From a virus (lineage: Duplodnaviria > Caudoviricetes): a stretch of DNA of 64,000 nt. Made by a program: the position numbers and the translations under genes. The stretch spans positions 1-64,000 of IMG/VR virus record IMGVR_UViG_3300032305_002044; one strand, written 5' to 3'. The notes under the pieces were generated by a model. It had not been told where the DNA came from. It saw nothing but the letters and a program-made list of their open reading frames with translations, and did no database searches. Positions 2,623-36,134 of this stretch are shown piece after piece. Each line of letters opens with the position of its first letter. The first letter of the stretch is position 1.

Positions 2623-4118
2623 TGCACCTAATCTATTTAGGGGCAGATGTACCTAGTAATAGAGTAATCCTAGAAACTATGGGAATTAAACGTGTTGGCG
2701 TGTCCTTTTGGAGACTAACCCGCCGTGGATTACCTAAAAGTAAACGGTATTTATTAGAAAATTACTTTCAACCCTATATGGAAATCCACGTTCATCCTGG
2801 CATTCCAGAGGCCACAGTGCTAACGGCAGCTGAGCTGGAGGAGTTTGCAGAGGCTTATGAGGACTTTCTAGCCCATAATATGGAAAGAATTACATCATTC
2901 ACAGAAATAACGCACCCACAAGTTGATAAGTTGAATCTTCAACTACAACGACAGGCCGCCTGGTCTGAAGAGGACAAGTTTTGGGTGACTATTAGGTCAG
3001 ATAGTTCTTACGCCGAGATCGTAGACTTATGCCAGCAATATAAGAACGTAGCCATTCCCTACGACCTTATTGAGTCAGACGTATCCCTAGCCGCTAAGAC
3101 CCGTTCCTTGACCAATCAATACGGTACGGTGTTCCATGCCCTTGCCTGTGCCAAGCCAGATAACCTGCGCCAGATACAGGTAAATTCTGCTACTACCCAG
3201 TCTTGGTTGTCCCCTATGATGCGTGGAGAGACCATTGTATGGGATGGTAACAAGCTAGTTAGATACCCAAAGAAGATGAAAGATCAAGCTCGCCCAAGAT
3301 ACAAAGCGGTGTACGAGAAAGCTGGGCTAGACTTTGATAAAATTATAGAAGACGACCCAGTAGAGGTAGCAAAGCTTGCCCTGTGGTCATATGACCAGTT
3401 TGAGGAGCGCTTTAATATGGTAAACAACCCATTTTCAAGTCCAGAAAATGACTACGATCAAGAAGACGAGTTATATTATAACAGCGACTTATTGCATACT
3501 ACTGGAAACGCGGAAACTACCCCCGCTGTACATGATAAGAGGGGGGGTCAGATGCGGAAACTTGAACATAGGGATAGCACCGAAATGGCTACGCTTCCTG
3601 TGTTTGGAACCGAGTACAAAACCATTGTTGAGCAGGATGAAAACGGGTTTGACGTCATCAAAGATGTCCCCCTTATGCGGTCAAATGCAACCAGCCTTCG
3701 TATGTGTGATACCTGTTTTGTAGCCTCTAATTGCCCTGCGTTTAAGCCTGCAAACACCTGTGCGTTTAACCTACCAGTAGAGGTTAAAACAAAAGAACAG
3801 TTAGTTTCGTTACTCAATGCAATCATTGAGATGCAGGCGCAACGTGTAGCATTTGCAAGGTTTTCCGAAGAATTAAACGGTGGTTATCCAGACCCTAATA
3901 CGGGTCAAGAAATGGATAGATTACTTAAACTTGTAAAGAACGCTAAGGACTTGCAAGACACATCATCATTCATTAAGATGACTGTTGAAGCAAAGAATGG
4001 AGGCGGGGTTTTAAGCCAAATATTTGGTGAAAGAGCCCGCGATTTGAGTCAGTTGCCAAACAACGGACTGTCTGAAGATGACACTACACAGGTCATTCGA
4101 AGAGCCATTGAAGACTAG
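2622..4118 (+). CDS. Hypothetical protein with a degenerate TGT/DpdA-like segment and a Cys4 cluster
   Basis: FHALAC...NSATTQSW resembles the H.LG...S.DSTSW signature; CDTCFVASNCPAFKPANTC. Confidence 0.45.
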   Translation: MHLIYLGADVPSNRVILETMGIKRVGVSFWRLTRRGLPKSKRYLLENYFQPYMEIHVHPGIPEATVLTAAELEEFAEAYEDFLAHNMERITSFTEITHPQVDKLNLQLQRQAAWSEEDKFWVTIRSDSSYAEIVDLCQQYKNVAIPYDLIESDVSLAAKTRSLTNQYGTVFHALACAKPDNLRQIQVNSATTQSWLSPMMRGETIVWDGNKLVRYPKKMKDQARPRYKAVYEKAGLDFDKIIEDDPVEVAKLALWSYDQFEERFNMVNNPFSSPENDYDQEDELYYNSDLLHTTGNAETTPAVHDKRGGQMRKLEHRDSTEMATLPVFGTEYKTIVEQDENGFDVIKDVPLMRSNATSLRMCDTCFVASNCPAFKPANTCAFNLPVEVKTKEQLVSLLNAIIEMQAQRVAFARFSEELNGGYPDPNTGQEMDRLLKLVKNAKDLQDTSSFIKMTVEAKNGGGVLSQIFGERARDLSQLPNNGLSEDDTTQVIRRAIED

Positions 4119-7681: not shown

Positions 7682-7994
7682 TATTTTCTCCGTTTTCTAG
7701 TTTAGGCCATACTCCGTCAATAACCATTAAAGCAATAATGCCGTAATTGGCTAAGTCTAGGAAGCTATCCCGCAGCGACTCGTGCTTTGGGTCTTTATTC
7801 TCGTCTATTAAGTTGTTAATGCGAGATACTTTATCGTAGATACGAACCCTTAAACCATTTAACGCACCGCCAGGGGCGTTTGCTATGTTTAGAGGACCAT
7901 AATCGTTTTGCTTTGAGATAAGCAGGTTACTACATTCAGTAATAATGTCTGCTACATCTACTACAAACTTTTTCATTTCAGGGCTTGTTGCCAT
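7674..7994 (-). CDS. DUF1599 / nucleotide-modification-associated domain protein
   Basis: K.NDYG..NI, RVRIYDK.SR..NL, ESLRDSF.DLANY. Confidence 0.75.
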   Translation of the reverse strand: MATSPEMKKFVVDVADIITECSNLLISKQNDYGPLNIANAPGGALNGLRVRIYDKVSRINNLIDENKDPKHESLRDSFLDLANYGIIALMVIDGVWPKLENGENNG

Positions 7995-7996
7995 TA

Positions 7997-8016
7997 TCTC
8001 TCTCTCTCTCTCTCTC
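7997..8016. repeat. (TC)10 microsatellite
   Basis: Read directly; sits 2 nt upstream of the ATG at 7994. Confidence 0.95.
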
Positions 8017-8036
8017 TTTGGTAAACATTACCATAA

Positions 8037-13308: not shown

Positions 13309-13745
13309 TTTATTTAGACTAATCCCATACCACACATAGGGGTCAAAAGTCAATAGTTTTCTCAAACTATTTTTGAGAGCTTTCCACTTGGCGTTAACAA
13401 GCTTTCGGGGCGTATCCCAACACCTAATCTAAGAAATATCGGGGGGTTTCCTGAATTGGCTATCAAATACTAATAGAGATAGAGAGAGAGGATTGGATAC
13501 ACTTCAGGTCACTTGAACCACCTATGAACAACTTTAGTAATAGGACTGGTATCTCTCTCTCTCACTCTCTTATCACATAACAGACTTGCGATACTAGCTA
13601 ATAATCTGGTCACGCAAGCGGTCAGGCTTGTCCCATATCACAGCAGTAGCCGACTGTCAAATCGGCGAGCATAACCAGCTGGGTAAGCTCTCTCTGGCCT
13701 ATACAGCTCTTCTCTCTCTGTCAAGCCGACACGCCGTTTAAGCGG

Positions 13746-29365: not shown

Positions 29366-29395
29366 AAAAAAGCCCCCCGCAAGGGGGGCTTTTTT
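29366..29395. terminator. Bidirectional terminator
   Basis: A6-GCCCCCC-GCAA-GGGGGGC-T6. Confidence 0.9.
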
Positions 29396-29708
29396 ATTTG
29401 CCCTTAATCCAATCAGCTGTAACCATAGACATTGGTTTAGGAGGTGGGATACGTCTAGTTTTACGAATAGCACGCCTGTCGCTATCTACGGTACCTCCCC
29501 AAATTCCTGTGACATCGTTGTATAGTGCGTATTGCAGGCACTCAATGTTAAACGGACAGGAGTTGCAAATAGACTTTGCTTGTTCTACACATAGGCTATA
29601 TTGGCGTTTGTCTTCTGAATTAGGTCTTGTAGGCAGCTCGGGAAAAAATACTTCGGGGTCAATTTTCATACAAGGTTGAGTTCCGTCAAAATACGGGGCA
29701 GTAGCCAT
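29394..29708 (-). CDS. whiB: WhiB-family Fe-S transcription factor
   Basis: C...DPEVFFP...AKSICNSCPFNIECL.YAL...GIWGG...R. Confidence 0.95.
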   Translation of the reverse strand: MATAPYFDGTQPCMKIDPEVFFPELPTRPNSEDKRQYSLCVEQAKSICNSCPFNIECLQYALYNDVTGIWGGTVDSDRRAIRKTRRIPPPKPMSMVTADWIKGK

Positions 29709-31268: not shown

Positions 31269-31528
31269 TTAATTTTGGACCACTATACGTACAAGTAATT
31301 AAATATCCACATAGGGACGCTCTGCCAGTTTTTGAAAAAGGCTGGTCTCATGAAATTGAAGAGCCTTACCGTCGAGGCAGTTGCCTAGTCTTTCGTGTAC
31401 CATTTACCAAGCCAGGATTTGTCATAGGAAAATGGGCGGAAGCTCAAACTGAGGATGAAGCTCTTACTGCAGCAATTTGGGGCAGAGAATTAAATGTACC
31501 GCTAGAGGAGTTATTAGAATGGGACTAA
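31265..31528 (+). CDS. Hypothetical protein
   Basis: TTGA overlap; SD GAGG. Confidence 0.65.
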   Translation: MINFGPLYVQVIKYPHRDALPVFEKGWSHEIEEPYRRGSCLVFRVPFTKPGFVIGKWAEAQTEDEALTAAIWGRELNVPLEELLEWD

Positions 31529-31770
31529 AGTTTTGGGTTAAAAAAGAAAACTGGGACAAACCTTTTTCTGAGAAAGTAGCCAAAAGAGTAGCAAAGCTAG
31601 CTACCGCAGATTTATATTTATGGACAGAGCAGGCTATTTCAGAGACTAACCGAGCACTGAGCAGATACCAAAAAAACCCTAACGATGTAGTTAGTTTACA
31701 AGATTTAACTTTAGGTTCTGAAGCTATACACGCTTTGGCCTGCGAGATAAATAAGCGCTCTATGCTATAG
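31519..31770 (+). CDS. Hypothetical helical protein upstream of terminase
   Basis: SD GAGGAG before the ATG at 31519. Confidence 0.65.
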   Translation: MGLKFWVKKENWDKPFSEKVAKRVAKLATADLYLWTEQAISETNRALSRYQKNPNDVVSLQDLTLGSEAIHALACEINKRSML

Positions 31771-31777
31771 TAATAAA

Positions 31778-31859
31778 GCCTCACTTCTTTACCTCTCCTA
31801 AGGTGGCAACTGGGCTCTAGCGTGTTTCTTCCTCCTTTCTTACACGCTAGAGCTCTTTT
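31778..31859 (+). ncRNA. Candidate two-hairpin small RNA with anti-SD (CU-rich) loops
   Basis: Extended -10 TGcTATAGT at 31763-31771; 14-bp stem 31812-31825/31842-31855 with loop TTCTTCCTCCTTTCTT, then TTTT. Confidence 0.55.
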
Positions 31860-31904
31860 ATTCCTGTATCCTTTATTTATCGGTTTTATTAGTTTGGAAG
31901 ATAC

Positions 31905-33500
31905 ATGAGTGAAACTCAACATCTCTTTTATGAAGAGGGTTCAGAAGAAGAGGAAGAATTCCTTGATGGTACAGCTACTGAGGATTCTTCTGATGAAGAA
32001 GAAATGGATGAGCTATCCAAAGAGTTTGTAAATAAACTTATTGATAATATGCTTGAGTTTATGGATGCTCTTGTAGGGCACTCCTTACATCCTTACCAGC
32101 TTCCTTTAGCACGTCGTATTATGGAATCGGTAATTATTAATGATGGCGAAGAGGTTACCGCCCTTGCAGCTCGTCAATCTGGAAAATCAGAGACCATTGC
32201 TAACACAGTAGCCACACTTATGGTTTTACTCCCACGCCTTGCCCAGATGTACCCAGACTTACTTGGGCAGTTTAAAAATGGTATCTGGATTGGTATGTTT
32301 GCTCCTGTTGAGGGCCAGGTAGAAACTTTGTTTGGTAGAACTGTAAATCGACTTACCTCTGAAAGAGCTCAAGAAATATTAGGTGATCCAGAGATTGATG
32401 ACTCTCTTGGAAAAGTCCCAGGTATTACACGCCAAATCAAACTTAAAAACTCTGGCAGTAGCCTTATGATGATGACAGCTAACCCTAGAGCAAAGATTGA
32501 ATCTAAGTCATTCCACCTCATTGTTATTGATGAGTGCCAGGGTGCAGATGACTTTATTGTTTCAAAGTCTATTAGCCCTATGCTTGCGTATTACTCGGGA
32601 ACTATGGTTAAGACTGGAACACCTACTAATGTTAAGAATAACTTTTATCGGTCTATTCAGTTAAACAAAAGACGCCAAACCAGCCGTGGAAAACGCCAAA
32701 ATCATTTTCAATGGGATTGGCGAGACGTATCTAAAGTTAACCCTAAATACGATAAATTCGTCCGTAAAGAAATGCTTCGCATTGGTGAAGACTCTGATGA
32801 GTTCCAGATGTCTTACAACTGCAAGTGGATGCTTGAAAAGGGTATGTTTGTTACATCTACTGTTATGGATGAACTTGGAGATACTAGCCAAGAAGTGGTA
32901 CGTGCTTGGCACCGTACGCCTGTGGTAGTTGGCATTGACCCTGCTCGAAAGATGGACAGCACAGTAGTTACCGTTGTCTGGGTAGACTGGGATCGGCCCG
33001 ATGAGTTTGGTTACTACGACCACCGCGTACTTAACTGGCTTGAAATTCAAGGCGACGATTGGGAAGATCAGTACTTTCAAATTGTAAACTTCCTAGCTAA
33101 CTACAACGTCCTTATTGTCGGAGTTGATGCAAATGGCGTTGGTGACGCAGTAGCTCAGCGCCTTAAGCTTCTTTTACCAAGAGCAGAAGTTGTTCCGTTA
33201 AGCAGTAGCCAGTCTGAGCAATCAAAGCGTTGGAAGCACCTAAAGGCTCTTATTGACCGTCGTATGATCGGATTTCCAGCCCACGCTAAAACTCGTAGAT
33301 TGCGTACATATAAACGTTTTTATCAGCAAATGACTGATTTAGAGACTAAATTTCAAGGACCTAACTTTACGGCGCAAGCGCCAGATGAAGCTCACGCACA
33401 TGATGACTTTGCTGATTCTTTAGCCATTGCATGCTGTTTAACACTAGATATGACCATGCCAGAAGCCGAAGTTTCTTCTTCACCATTTTTCTCTAGGTAG
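31905..33500 (+). CDS. terL: Terminase large subunit
   Basis: ARQSGKS Walker A, IVIDE Walker B, GTP coupling motif, VGIDPA nuclease motif, HDDFADSL. Confidence 0.95.
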   Translation: MSETQHLFYEEGSEEEEEFLDGTATEDSSDEEEMDELSKEFVNKLIDNMLEFMDALVGHSLHPYQLPLARRIMESVIINDGEEVTALAARQSGKSETIANTVATLMVLLPRLAQMYPDLLGQFKNGIWIGMFAPVEGQVETLFGRTVNRLTSERAQEILGDPEIDDSLGKVPGITRQIKLKNSGSSLMMMTANPRAKIESKSFHLIVIDECQGADDFIVSKSISPMLAYYSGTMVKTGTPTNVKNNFYRSIQLNKRRQTSRGKRQNHFQWDWRDVSKVNPKYDKFVRKEMLRIGEDSDEFQMSYNCKWMLEKGMFVTSTVMDELGDTSQEVVRAWHRTPVVVGIDPARKMDSTVVTVVWVDWDRPDEFGYYDHRVLNWLEIQGDDWEDQYFQIVNFLANYNVLIVGVDANGVGDAVAQRLKLLLPRAEVVPLSSSQSEQSKRWKHLKALIDRRMIGFPAHAKTRRLRTYKRFYQQMTDLETKFQGPNFTAQAPDEAHAHDDFADSLAIACCLTLDMTMPEAEVSSSPFFSR

Positions 33501-34397: not shown

Positions 34398-36134
34398 GTG
34401 AGTGTTGACTTTTCGCCCCCCAGTTATAGGGCGGCGTCATCTGACCTTACCATCTCAATTTCTCCTCTTGGTCTTGTGGAGCTTGCAGATGAAGAGTTTG
34501 AGGTTCACGGTCCTCGTTTAAACCGTTATTCCCTTAACTGGGCTATGTATTTAGGCCATCACGCATCTTACCGCCGTCAAGCGGGAGAAACCCAAATGGT
34601 GTTTAACTATTACCGAGCGTTTACTGATTACATTATTAACTTCTCGTTTAGTCATGGTTGCCATTTCCGTAGCCCTAAGCAAACTGAGGGAATTGTTCCT
34701 GACCTGCTTGAGCGCGTGTGGTCACAAGATAACGATAAAGGCACCGTTCTTTGGGAAATGGGCCAGCAAGGCGCAGTTTCAGGCGATTGTTTTGTCAAAG
34801 TTGCCTATGAAGAAGCTTATGAAGATTCCGTAGGACGTGCGCATGCTGGTAAAGTCCGCATTCTTCCCCTTAATGCATCGTTTTGTTTCCCCGAGTTCCA
34901 TCCGCATGACCGCGAGCGGTTAATCCGTTTCAAGCTAAAGTACCGTTTCTGGGGCACCTCGCTTGAAGGAACTCGGCAGGTTTTTACATATACTGAAATT
35001 CTTACCGATGACATTATTGAGGAATATATTAACGATGAACTTATTGACTCACGCCCAAACCCACTCGGAGTTATCCCAGTTATTCACATTCCTAATGTTC
35101 GGGTTTCTGGTTCCCCTTGGGGGCTTTCTGATTGCCATGACATCATTCCTGTTAACCGTACCTATAATGAAGTTTCAACAGATATTGCAGATATCGTTAA
35201 TTATCATGCTGCTCCTGTTACTGTCATCATCGGAGCCAAGGCTAATCAACTAGAAAAGGGCGCTAACAAGGTATGGGGCGGTCTTCCTAAAGATGCTCGT
35301 GTAGAAAACCTTGAAGGTGGCGCACAGGGTCTAAAGGGCGCTATGGATTTCCTAGCCCTTATGAAAAAAGCTATGCATGAACTTACTGGCGTTCCAGAAA
35401 CCGCACTTGGTATGGCCCAGCCTATTTCTAACACTTCTGGTGTTGCGCTTTCTATTCAGTTCCAGCCATTAATGAACAAGTGGAACCAAAAGATTACTCA
35501 GTACTCTCGCGGCATTCAGCGTATTAATGAACTTATTATTCTTAACCTTGCCATCAAGGAACCTGACACCATGATGTGGAACCCTCTACTTGAGGGCGGG
35601 CTTGCTCAGGGCGAAGCTCAAATGCTTGATATTAATGATCCGTTAACCTATCAAAACTTTGTACACTTCTTGCCACCATTACCTTTGGATAAGTTAATTG
35701 TGCTTAACGAAGTACAGACCAAGATGTCTTTGGGTCTGGAGTCAAAGGCTGGCGCTCTTCGTGCCCTTGGTGAAGAGTTCCCATACGAGAAGCTAGATGA
35801 GATTCGTGTTGAACTCCTAGCTGATGCTAAGGCCGATGGAGCCGTCAAACTGGTACAAACCCAGATTGAAAACACCATTGCTGAACTTACTGGCATGCTT
35901 TCTGGCGGCCTTGGCGGTCAACCAGTTCCTATGGCGCCTGGACAACCTGGCGGTCCTCCAGCAGGAAAAGAAGGCGAAGGATTACCTCCAATGCCTATGC
36001 CAATTATTGACCAAGCAACTATTGCGTCTGAGCAAGCTGAACAGCAGCTCCGCATTGACTTGGTAACAAGAGCTTACGGTACTACTCTGCCAAACAGAAG
36101 AGCACCGTCAGGCGAAGGAAATACTAAATATTAA
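34398..36134 (+). CDS. Portal protein
   Basis: Position and size; NPLG.IP..H.PN, SGVAL motifs. Confidence 0.9.
   Translation: MSVDFSPPSYRAASSDLTISISPLGLVELADEEFEVHGPRLNRYSLNWAMYLGHHASYRRQAGETQMVFNYYRAFTDYIINFSFSHGCHFRSPKQTEGIVPDLLERVWSQDNDKGTVLWEMGQQGAVSGDCFVKVAYEEAYEDSVGRAHAGKVRILPLNASFCFPEFHPHDRERLIRFKLKYRFWGTSLEGTRQVFTYTEILTDDIIEEYINDELIDSRPNPLGVIPVIHIPNVRVSGSPWGLSDCHDIIPVNRTYNEVSTDIADIVNYHAAPVTVIIGAKANQLEKGANKVWGGLPKDARVENLEGGAQGLKGAMDFLALMKKAMHELTGVPETALGMAQPISNTSGVALSIQFQPLMNKWNQKITQYSRGIQRINELIILNLAIKEPDTMMWNPLLEGGLAQGEAQMLDINDPLTYQNFVHFLPPLPLDKLIVLNEVQTKMSLGLESKAGALRALGEEFPYEKLDEIRVELLADAKADGAVKLVQTQIENTIAELTGMLSGGLGGQPVPMAPGQPGGPPAGKEGEGLPPMPMPIIDQATIASEQAEQQLRIDLVTRAYGTTLPNRRAPSGEGNTKY

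Follow-up and report, generated by a model that had tools for sequence, protein, structure and literature searches.

To our knowledge, few phage-encoded small RNAs are known, and none has been described for actinobacterial phages. In lambda, a short terminated RNA, the PR'-tR' '6S' transcript, heads the late operon, whose genes are transcribed from that very promoter by means of Q antitermination. The Firmicutes small RNAs RsaE/RoxS and RNAIII (UCCC loops) display C-rich strands that are complementary to Shine-Dalgarno (SD) sequences to block ribosomes. Actinobacteria produce many leaderless mRNAs. In this phylum, small RNAs with C-rich loops that act without a chaperone have been documented (PMC6486639). 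The 16S rRNA tail is removed by the toxins MazF-mt11 and RelE1 (PMC12274833, PMC12620021); MazF-mt11 is reported to cut C^ACCU and to remove the terminal 11 nt of 16S (PMC12274833).

The window, meaning the whole stretch of DNA analysed (64,000 nt), covers positions 1 to 64,000 of an IMG/VR virus record that is 93.4 kb long, with an estimated completeness of 98%. The G+C content of this phage is approximately 44%. The element described here lies in a 134-nt gap between the end of a small ORF (gene X) at 31770 and the large terminase gene, terL (Table 1). The closest cultured relatives of terL, at 53-55% identity, belong to the Streptomyces phages BRock, GiJojo and similar phages. An actinobacterial host, as implied in an earlier note on this DNA, is well supported by these nearest isolates together with two WhiB-family genes in the record; among the 14 control genomes of the WhiB search, Corynebacterium alone scored.

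Homologues of gene X were present upstream of the element in all relatives, with 12 residues invariant among 31 sequences. The AF2 model of the protein is a helical hairpin (pLDDT 89.7). Searches of Pfam, PHROG, PDB sequences and Foldseek returned no informative match, so gene X offers no clue to the role of the small RNA. An RNA chaperone and a small terminase subunit (TerS) were both considered for gene X and rejected, as the AF2 hairpin gave generic (uL29-like) matches and there were no Pfam or PHROG hits.

Table 1. Features of the small-RNA locus and its surroundings. Positions refer to the window unless another sequence is named.
Feature	Position	Strand	Remarks
WhiB-family gene	29394-29708	-	PF02467; two WhiB in record, 51.9 and 58.7 bits
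Gene X	31519..31770	+	83-aa conserved protein, function not assigned; small-RNA cassette always directly behind
P1, predicted extended -10 promoter TGcTATAGT	31763..31771	+	Hexamer TATAGT at 31766-31771
Predicted transcription start (G)	31778	+	Placed at canonical distance from the -10 box
5' C/U-rich element GCCUCACUUCUUUACCUCUCCUAAGGUGGCA	31778..31808	+	Family-wide conserved part; mostly single-stranded; GCC...GGC clamp
Intrinsic terminator hairpin	arms 31812-31825 / 31842-31855	+	14 bp, one G-U pair
Terminator loop UUCUUCCUCCUUUCUU	31826..31841	+	16 nt, pyrimidine-only
U-run of terminator (TTTT)	31856..31859	+	T-runs follow the hairpin in all variants
P2, -10 box of terL's own promoter, TG + TATCCT	31865..31872 (TATCCT 31867-72)	+	32 nt before ATG
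terL, large terminase subunit	31905..33500	+	Pfam Terminase_6N/6C; first gene of structural module
Portal, SPP1-type	34398-36134		Within window
Second WhiB-family gene	84041-84265 of G000	+	PF02467; outside window

The earlier note had pointed to an extended -10 box, a first hairpin with a CU-rich loop at the predicted start, a 14-bp stem with a 16-nt loop containing CCTCCTTTCT, and a final TTTT. The promoter box, the C/U element, the stem, the loop with its 10-mer and the T-run were all found where it had placed them. The hairpin proposed for the C/U element proved weak: taken alone, the 5' element of the window folds at about -3 kcal/mol with a z score of about -1, and its minimum free energy (MFE) structure pairs just ACCU with AGGU. 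The stop codon of the upstream ORF (TAG, 31768-70) lies inside TGcTATAGT. The region 31763-31870 as a whole folds at -33.5 kcal/mol, compared with -17.9 +/- 2.5 kcal/mol for 200 shuffled sequences (z -6.2), none of which was as good, and the terminator segment alone folds at -26.9 kcal/mol. The 10-mer CCTCCTTTCT occurs once in the window; at least one copy was present in 7 of 100 window shuffles, making the 10-mer alone only weakly improbable.

More than 597 relatives of terL were found in IMG/VR, of which the best 80 (83-100% identity) were taken with their flanks. Overall, more than 100 related IMG/VR loci were compared, representing 48 distinct variants, with 47 entering the promoter table. 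Upstream of terL, almost all of the fetched relatives exhibited a TAnnnT box, a spacing of 6-7 nt, a [G/A]CC tract, a G+C-rich hairpin and a T-run. The tract is nearly free of purines, its typical form being GCCUCUCUUCCUCUCCCCGUGUGGUGGCA. The recurrence of promoter box, start, C/U tract and terminator in the 48 distinct variants places the element far beyond chance.

A covariance model built from the short-loop group alone recovered the window element (31778-31862, 19.4 bits). Exactly one full-length copy per sequence was detected in the genome of the window and in four larger contigs of relatives, and no match was obtained in the Streptomyces phages. With nhmmer, too, the 5' element gave a single match in each genome. 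In BRock and GiJojo, the nearest isolates, the element is absent and a reverse-strand membrane-protein gene takes its place. By eye, GiJojo (L081) also holds an unannotated ORF resembling gene X at approximately 820-1075, with the reverse-strand membrane-protein gene before terL. When IMG/VR and metagenome contigs were scanned with loose patterns, true instances appeared solely beside terL of this clade, and a strict pattern applied to one prokaryote genome per species (185,579 species) gave a single chance match in a Rhizobiales repeat. Against Rfam 15, including the 6C family (RF01066), no gathering-level match was found in the whole window; with E values allowed up to 10, the region 31650-31950 returned just a chance match to HOTAIR_2 on the opposite strand.

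Coding explanations were rejected. The lengths of the element (61-86 nt) are not multiples of three apart. A 152-aa ORF on the minus strand (31464-31922), which runs antisense through the element, is probably spurious: it is not open across the element in 8 variants, among them the near relatives L004, L008, L009, L013, L016 and L032. On comparative grounds, the element is a genuine small-RNA gene conserved among phages, predicted to belong to an undescribed family that is carried, once per genome and always between gene X and terL, by a large clade of uncultured actinobacterial phages.

The boundaries of this predicted gene were examined across the variants. Relative to the first base of [G/A]CC, the TAnnnT box spans -12 to -7 in the 47 distinct variants, with T at -7 in 39 of them and one base further in the remainder. 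The upstream extension is frequent, T being found at -15 in 25/47 variants and G at -14 in 28/47. All 47 have a purine at +1 (G in 41, A in 6). The 47 variants thus present the actinobacterial sigma-A-type arrangement of TAnnnT 6-7 nt before a purine start with an optional TGn. The geometry of P1 is canonical for an actinobacterial -10-type promoter, and the start is predicted at G31778. A near-palindrome resembling ATTTGTCGACAAAT was observed approximately 20-33 nt upstream of the RNA start in L014, L039, L042, L053, L072 and others. It occupies the -35 location in many short-loop relatives and is absent from the window genome; it may be a binding site for a regulator.

At the other end, a stem of 7-15 pairs without mismatch, with a T-run behind it, is present in every distinct variant. 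Compensatory changes were seen in 10/10 RNAalifold pairs, and the stem sequences differ widely among relatives, all of them pairing. A G+C-rich stem, a U-run and compensation are the marks of an intrinsic terminator; the 16-nt loop of the window is unusually large for one.

The reading that we favour, with a probability of about one half, is that the locus is a self-contained gene for an RNA of ~80-85 nt, a member of an uncatalogued family, which would pair in trans with SD regions. Under this model, P1 would start the RNA at G31778 and the intrinsic terminator would end it near 31859, giving a product of ~80-85 nt. The exposed C/U tracts would then pair in trans with purine-rich ribosome-binding sites, probably those of host mRNAs and possibly those of phage mRNAs with long SDs, and the pairing would block 30S binding, the mode of action of C-rich-loop small RNAs such as 6C, RsaE/RoxS and RNAIII. 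The analysis shows the sequence, the fold, the conserved promoter geometry, the covarying terminator, the single copy and the independence from terL; accumulation of the RNA, pairing in trans and the nature of the targets are inferred.

The relationship of the element to terL was analysed next to the alternative, also raised in the earlier note, of an attenuator that keeps terminase low. A second TAnnnT box lies downstream of the terminator in every variant. In the group of the window, this box is 32-33 nt before the terL ATG in 10/12 distinct variants (28 nt in L059 and 30 nt in L029). In the larger group it is 6-10 nt before the ATG in 28/31 variants, often with no SD, implying a leaderless terL message in that group. 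The box 6-10 nt before the terL start has the conserved form TA[A/G]ACT in the larger group (L014, L021, L024, L036, L039 and others), and L034, L036, L048 and L061 have no SD before terL. In the window's group, the terL leader is approximately 26 nt long with a weak GGA.

The cassette can also be lost or displaced. Two loci from two different metagenomes, L011 and L017, lack the whole cassette, with the -10 box on the upstream stop codon joined to the terL leader; the site of this natural deletion is at approximately 2960-3000, and the covariance model gave no match on the 52-kb cassette-less contig. In L079 and L080, two tRNA genes are located between the small RNA and terL (L079 2692-2843, tRNA-Thr(TGT) and tRNA-Asn(GTT)), and L006, L010 and L020 have extra DNA with an ORF in this position. 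Where extra DNA precedes terL, the RNA remains behind gene X. In L050 (approximately 2030-2050), a truncated gene X is fused to the N-terminal region of terL, representing either a deletion or an assembly chimera.

The terL promoter of its own, together with the absence or separation of the cassette, argues for an independent small-RNA gene and not a terL attenuator. An attenuator or riboswitch leader for terL was accordingly rejected: P2 follows the terminator, no competing fold was seen, L011/L017 do without the cassette, and in L079, L006 and L020 it is separated from terL. No alternative antiterminator fold was apparent in the window fold or in the folding of the 5' element across variants. 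Features of lambda-type nut/qut sites were likewise not found, the only hairpin being the one that is variable in sequence and followed by a U-run, and the nearly A-free transcribed tract leaves no TAnnnT-like pause element. Pairing in cis between the loop and the terL leader was also rejected. By eye, 6-bp matches were present in the window, L004 and L008 and not in L013, L032 or L007, as expected of chance, and GGAGG, with which the loop could pair, is absent from the terL leader. Taken together, the comparison describes an independent transcription unit as expected of a trans-acting small RNA (P1, terminator, P2 and a separable cassette), and the discrete small-RNA gene proposed in the earlier note gains from the -10 box at a fixed distance from a purine +1 in 47 variants, the covarying terminator and the separate terL promoter.

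The element could instead serve gene X in cis, as the terminator of its operon, with the C/U tract forming a 3'-UTR or leader that acts in stability, Rho loading or read-through, and with P1 weak or irrelevant. It lies on the same strand as gene X, directly behind it, and the two always travel together, so the terminator must also stop transcripts arriving from upstream. Rho binds C-rich, G-poor RNA, a composition that this transcript would have. However, the spacing between the -10 box and the purine +1 is exact in 47 variants despite varying surroundings and a varying C-terminus of X, no antiterminator fold was seen, P2 is downstream of the terminator, and L011/L017 have terL without the element. 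A boundary role of this kind is considered unlikely.

Returning to the small RNA that would pair in trans, its most striking segment in the window is the terminator loop. Positions 31831-31840 (CCTCCTTTCT) match the 3'-terminal 10 nt of actinobacterial 16S rRNA exactly; the tail sequence given in the earlier note is consistent with the MazF-mt11 report (PMC12274833). In the main group, the loops are 3-7 nt long and contain no anti-SD. A search aimed at 5' elements of the window type brought out, in the window's subclade, 12 distinct variants with loops of 15-18 nt, of which 8 carry CCUCC in mid-loop on compensated stems that differ from one another. The loop of the window recurs in L220 on a different stem. 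The others are UCUUUCCUCCUUUCUU (L224), AAUUUCCCUCCUUUCG (L013/16), AUUUCACCUCCUUUGG (L211), AUUUCCCUCCUUUGG (L219), GUUCACCUCCUCUGA (L223) and an 18-nt CCUCC-containing loop (L221). Two subclade loops read (U)CACCUCCU, which lengthens the match to the 16S tail. The long loops of L004, L008, L009 and L209 have no CCUCC, and six further subclade variants have loops of 4-7 nt. In L012/L029, CCUCCUU is found in the 5' tract instead of the loop. The closest relative, L004/5 (95% terL identity), differs at 4/16 loop positions and 1/28 stem positions and has lost CCUCC. A metagenome scan for further long-loop variants found none, the sole new variant (L244) being short-looped.

Conservation of the loop upstream of terL, which the earlier note had proposed as a check, therefore holds in part: CCUCC is kept in 8/12 long loops of the subclade, whereas most family members have no anti-SD loop and L004/5 have lost it. 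From this distribution, the anti-SD loop is best read as a selected yet dispensable trait of the window's subclade, added to the family-wide C/U tract.

A free copy of the anti-SD could be a decoy for RNases of the MazF-mt11/RelE1 type. It could also compete with ribosomes late in infection, so that host mRNAs with strong SDs are displaced and terL, leaderless or with a weak SD, is still read; this pair of possibilities we regard as rather improbable. A decoy in the strict sense, in which the copy of the 16S tail occupies a tail-recognizing protein with no mRNA pairing at all, is likewise improbable. Such a protein might be an RNase of host abortive infection that cleaves the anti-SD off, or else a factor acting in maturation or initiation. 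The loop of the window reproduces the final 10 nt of the 16S tail, and CACCU is contained in the loops of L211 and L223 (UCACCUCCU). Actinobacterial toxins that remove the anti-SD are documented (PMC12274833, PMC12620021), and a losable cassette would fit an accessory counter-defence gene. However, the conserved core, CCUCC, pairs with SDs and is not the CACCU cleavage motif. CACCU occurs in just 2/8 of the loop variants that retain CCUCC, and most family members have no 16S-like loop, only a generic C/U tract.

That tract is the part of the putative SD-pairing RNA that is shared by the whole family. On its own, the 5' element folds weakly, most variants giving between -1 and -5 kcal/mol at a mean z score of -0.7. 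The clamp GCC/GGC is replaced by ACC/GGU in L034/L048 and L077, and is mismatched (A.C) in L033/L047/L075, which makes the evidence for covariation modest. The element is best described as a predominantly single-stranded C/U tract, predicted to be closed by a 3-bp clamp that uses the extreme 5' end. The weakly folded tract and the terminator loop, which is unpaired in both the MFE and centroid structures, would each provide an accessible seed. The 5' tract is more conserved than the third codon positions of terL (81% vs 64%, and 62% vs 53%). In highly diverged relatives, its composition and a few motifs (GCCUC, CUCYCC and GG[C/U]) are kept rather than the exact sequence; tract identity at this divergence is 54-62%, of which a two-letter alphabet alone gives approximately 50%. 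Such conservation of composition over sequence fits generic pairing with purine tracts, or protein binding, equally as well as a specific target. In the window's subclade, the 5' element ends with the SD-like AAGGUGG (window 31800-31806), which can pair with ACCU just upstream (MFE) or, imperfectly, with CCUCCUU of the terminator loop. The window RNA thus carries both SD-like and anti-SD-like strings.

Protein binding could take the form of a sponge, in which the purine-free tract titrates a pyrimidine-binding protein, for example ribosomal protein S1, and so favours leaderless mRNAs. In E. coli, S1 has a preference for RNA rich in pyrimidines, and leaderless mRNAs can do without it. The conservation of composition above sequence agrees with this, as does the larger group, where terL looks leaderless (-10 box 6-10 nt before the ATG, several with no SD). 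However, other late genes such as portal have SDs, and the specific motifs GCCUC, CUCYCC and GG[C/U] are conserved beyond composition, leaving a sponge very improbable. A DNA-level signal, namely a packaging (pac/cos) site with incidental RNA-like features, is suggested by the location immediately upstream of the terminase gene and can be dismissed as scarcely credible, given the promoter geometry, compensated stems with T-runs and strand asymmetry that are signatures of RNA and transcription, a gene X with no similarity to TerS, and cassette-less relatives that keep terL.

For the preferred reading, pairing in trans with SD regions, potential targets were sought. The loop and the 5' tract are complementary to purine-rich SDs, and the energies computed for pairing between the loop and the translation-initiation regions of the phage follow SD strength (r 0.84); together these favour pairing with ribosome-binding sites in trans. 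When the whole 93-kb genome was scanned for ungapped complementarity to the 5' tract and to the loop, the best scores did not exceed those of shuffled controls. The complement of the common seed, with 2 mismatches allowed, was found in five related contigs (11-79 kb) just at the RNA gene itself and at one 2-mismatch site (G001). In the phage of the window, the strongest pairing was with the start region of portal (-26 kcal/mol). It was rejected as a target, since no covariation was seen across 35 phages, with own pairs at -19.6 and cross pairs at -18.9 kcal/mol.

A (GA)10 tract is located at 7994-8022 of the window on the minus strand, where it makes up nearly the whole 5'-UTR of a gene on that strand; a TGgTAATGT box directly precedes the tract, which ends 3 nt short of the ATG. 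This 5'-UTR was also rejected as a target, not being conserved in 5 relatives. Two further CT/GA-rich tracts were observed at 13472-13493 and 13550-13574 of the window, and these tracts are likewise not conserved in the five relatives.

The earlier note had further suggested that the RNA would occlude strong SDs and spare phage genes that are leaderless or translationally coupled. This is contradicted by the phage's own start regions: from 19 kb on, 47% of + strand ORFs, late ones included, have AAGGAG-type SDs (duplex of -6 kcal/mol or better), compared with a background of 10%. As the phage genes use such SDs, unselective SD blocking would harm the phage. SD blocking, if real, would need selectivity through longer complementarity (AAAGGAGGUGA-type sites), timing or dosage. 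Also counting against the pairing model is that the cassette is dispensable in some relatives.

The locus offers a predicted gene with clear boundaries (promoter, start and terminator) that are supported by 48 variants, and its place in the genome is constant across a large clade of phages from the environment. Its pyrimidine tracts, and the literal copy of the 16S anti-SD in one subclade, suggest that the initiation of translation is what the RNA would disturb. Once confirmed, the RNA would be a practical means of studying how such phages protect or reprogramme the ribosomes of their hosts, and the covariance model can be used to annotate the family.

Compared with the lambda '6S' transcript, the arrangement is alike in its constitutive-looking promoter, in a terminator within ~80-200 nt and in its place immediately before late/structural genes. 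It differs in that the phage cassette described here has a second conserved promoter after the terminator, no -10-like pause, and can be deleted. With the actinobacterial 16S 3' tail (ACCUCCUUUCU), the likeness is literal, the window loop being identical to the last 10 nt and two relatives extending the match to (U)CACCUCCU; however, the phage copies the tail alone, within the loop of a hairpin and without helix 45, and most members have no copy. RsaE/RoxS and RNAIII likewise display C-rich, SD-complementary single strands, but their sequences are unrelated and they are host-encoded with defined regulons. The 6C small RNA (RF01066) is similar in being from the same host phylum and in pairing with mRNAs through exposed C-rich loops with no chaperone (PMC6486639). 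It is host-encoded with two C-rich hairpin loops and shows no sequence or structure match to the phage RNA, whereas the predicted RNA described here is phage-encoded and would present a C/U tract at its extreme 5' end and, in one subclade, a C/U terminator loop.
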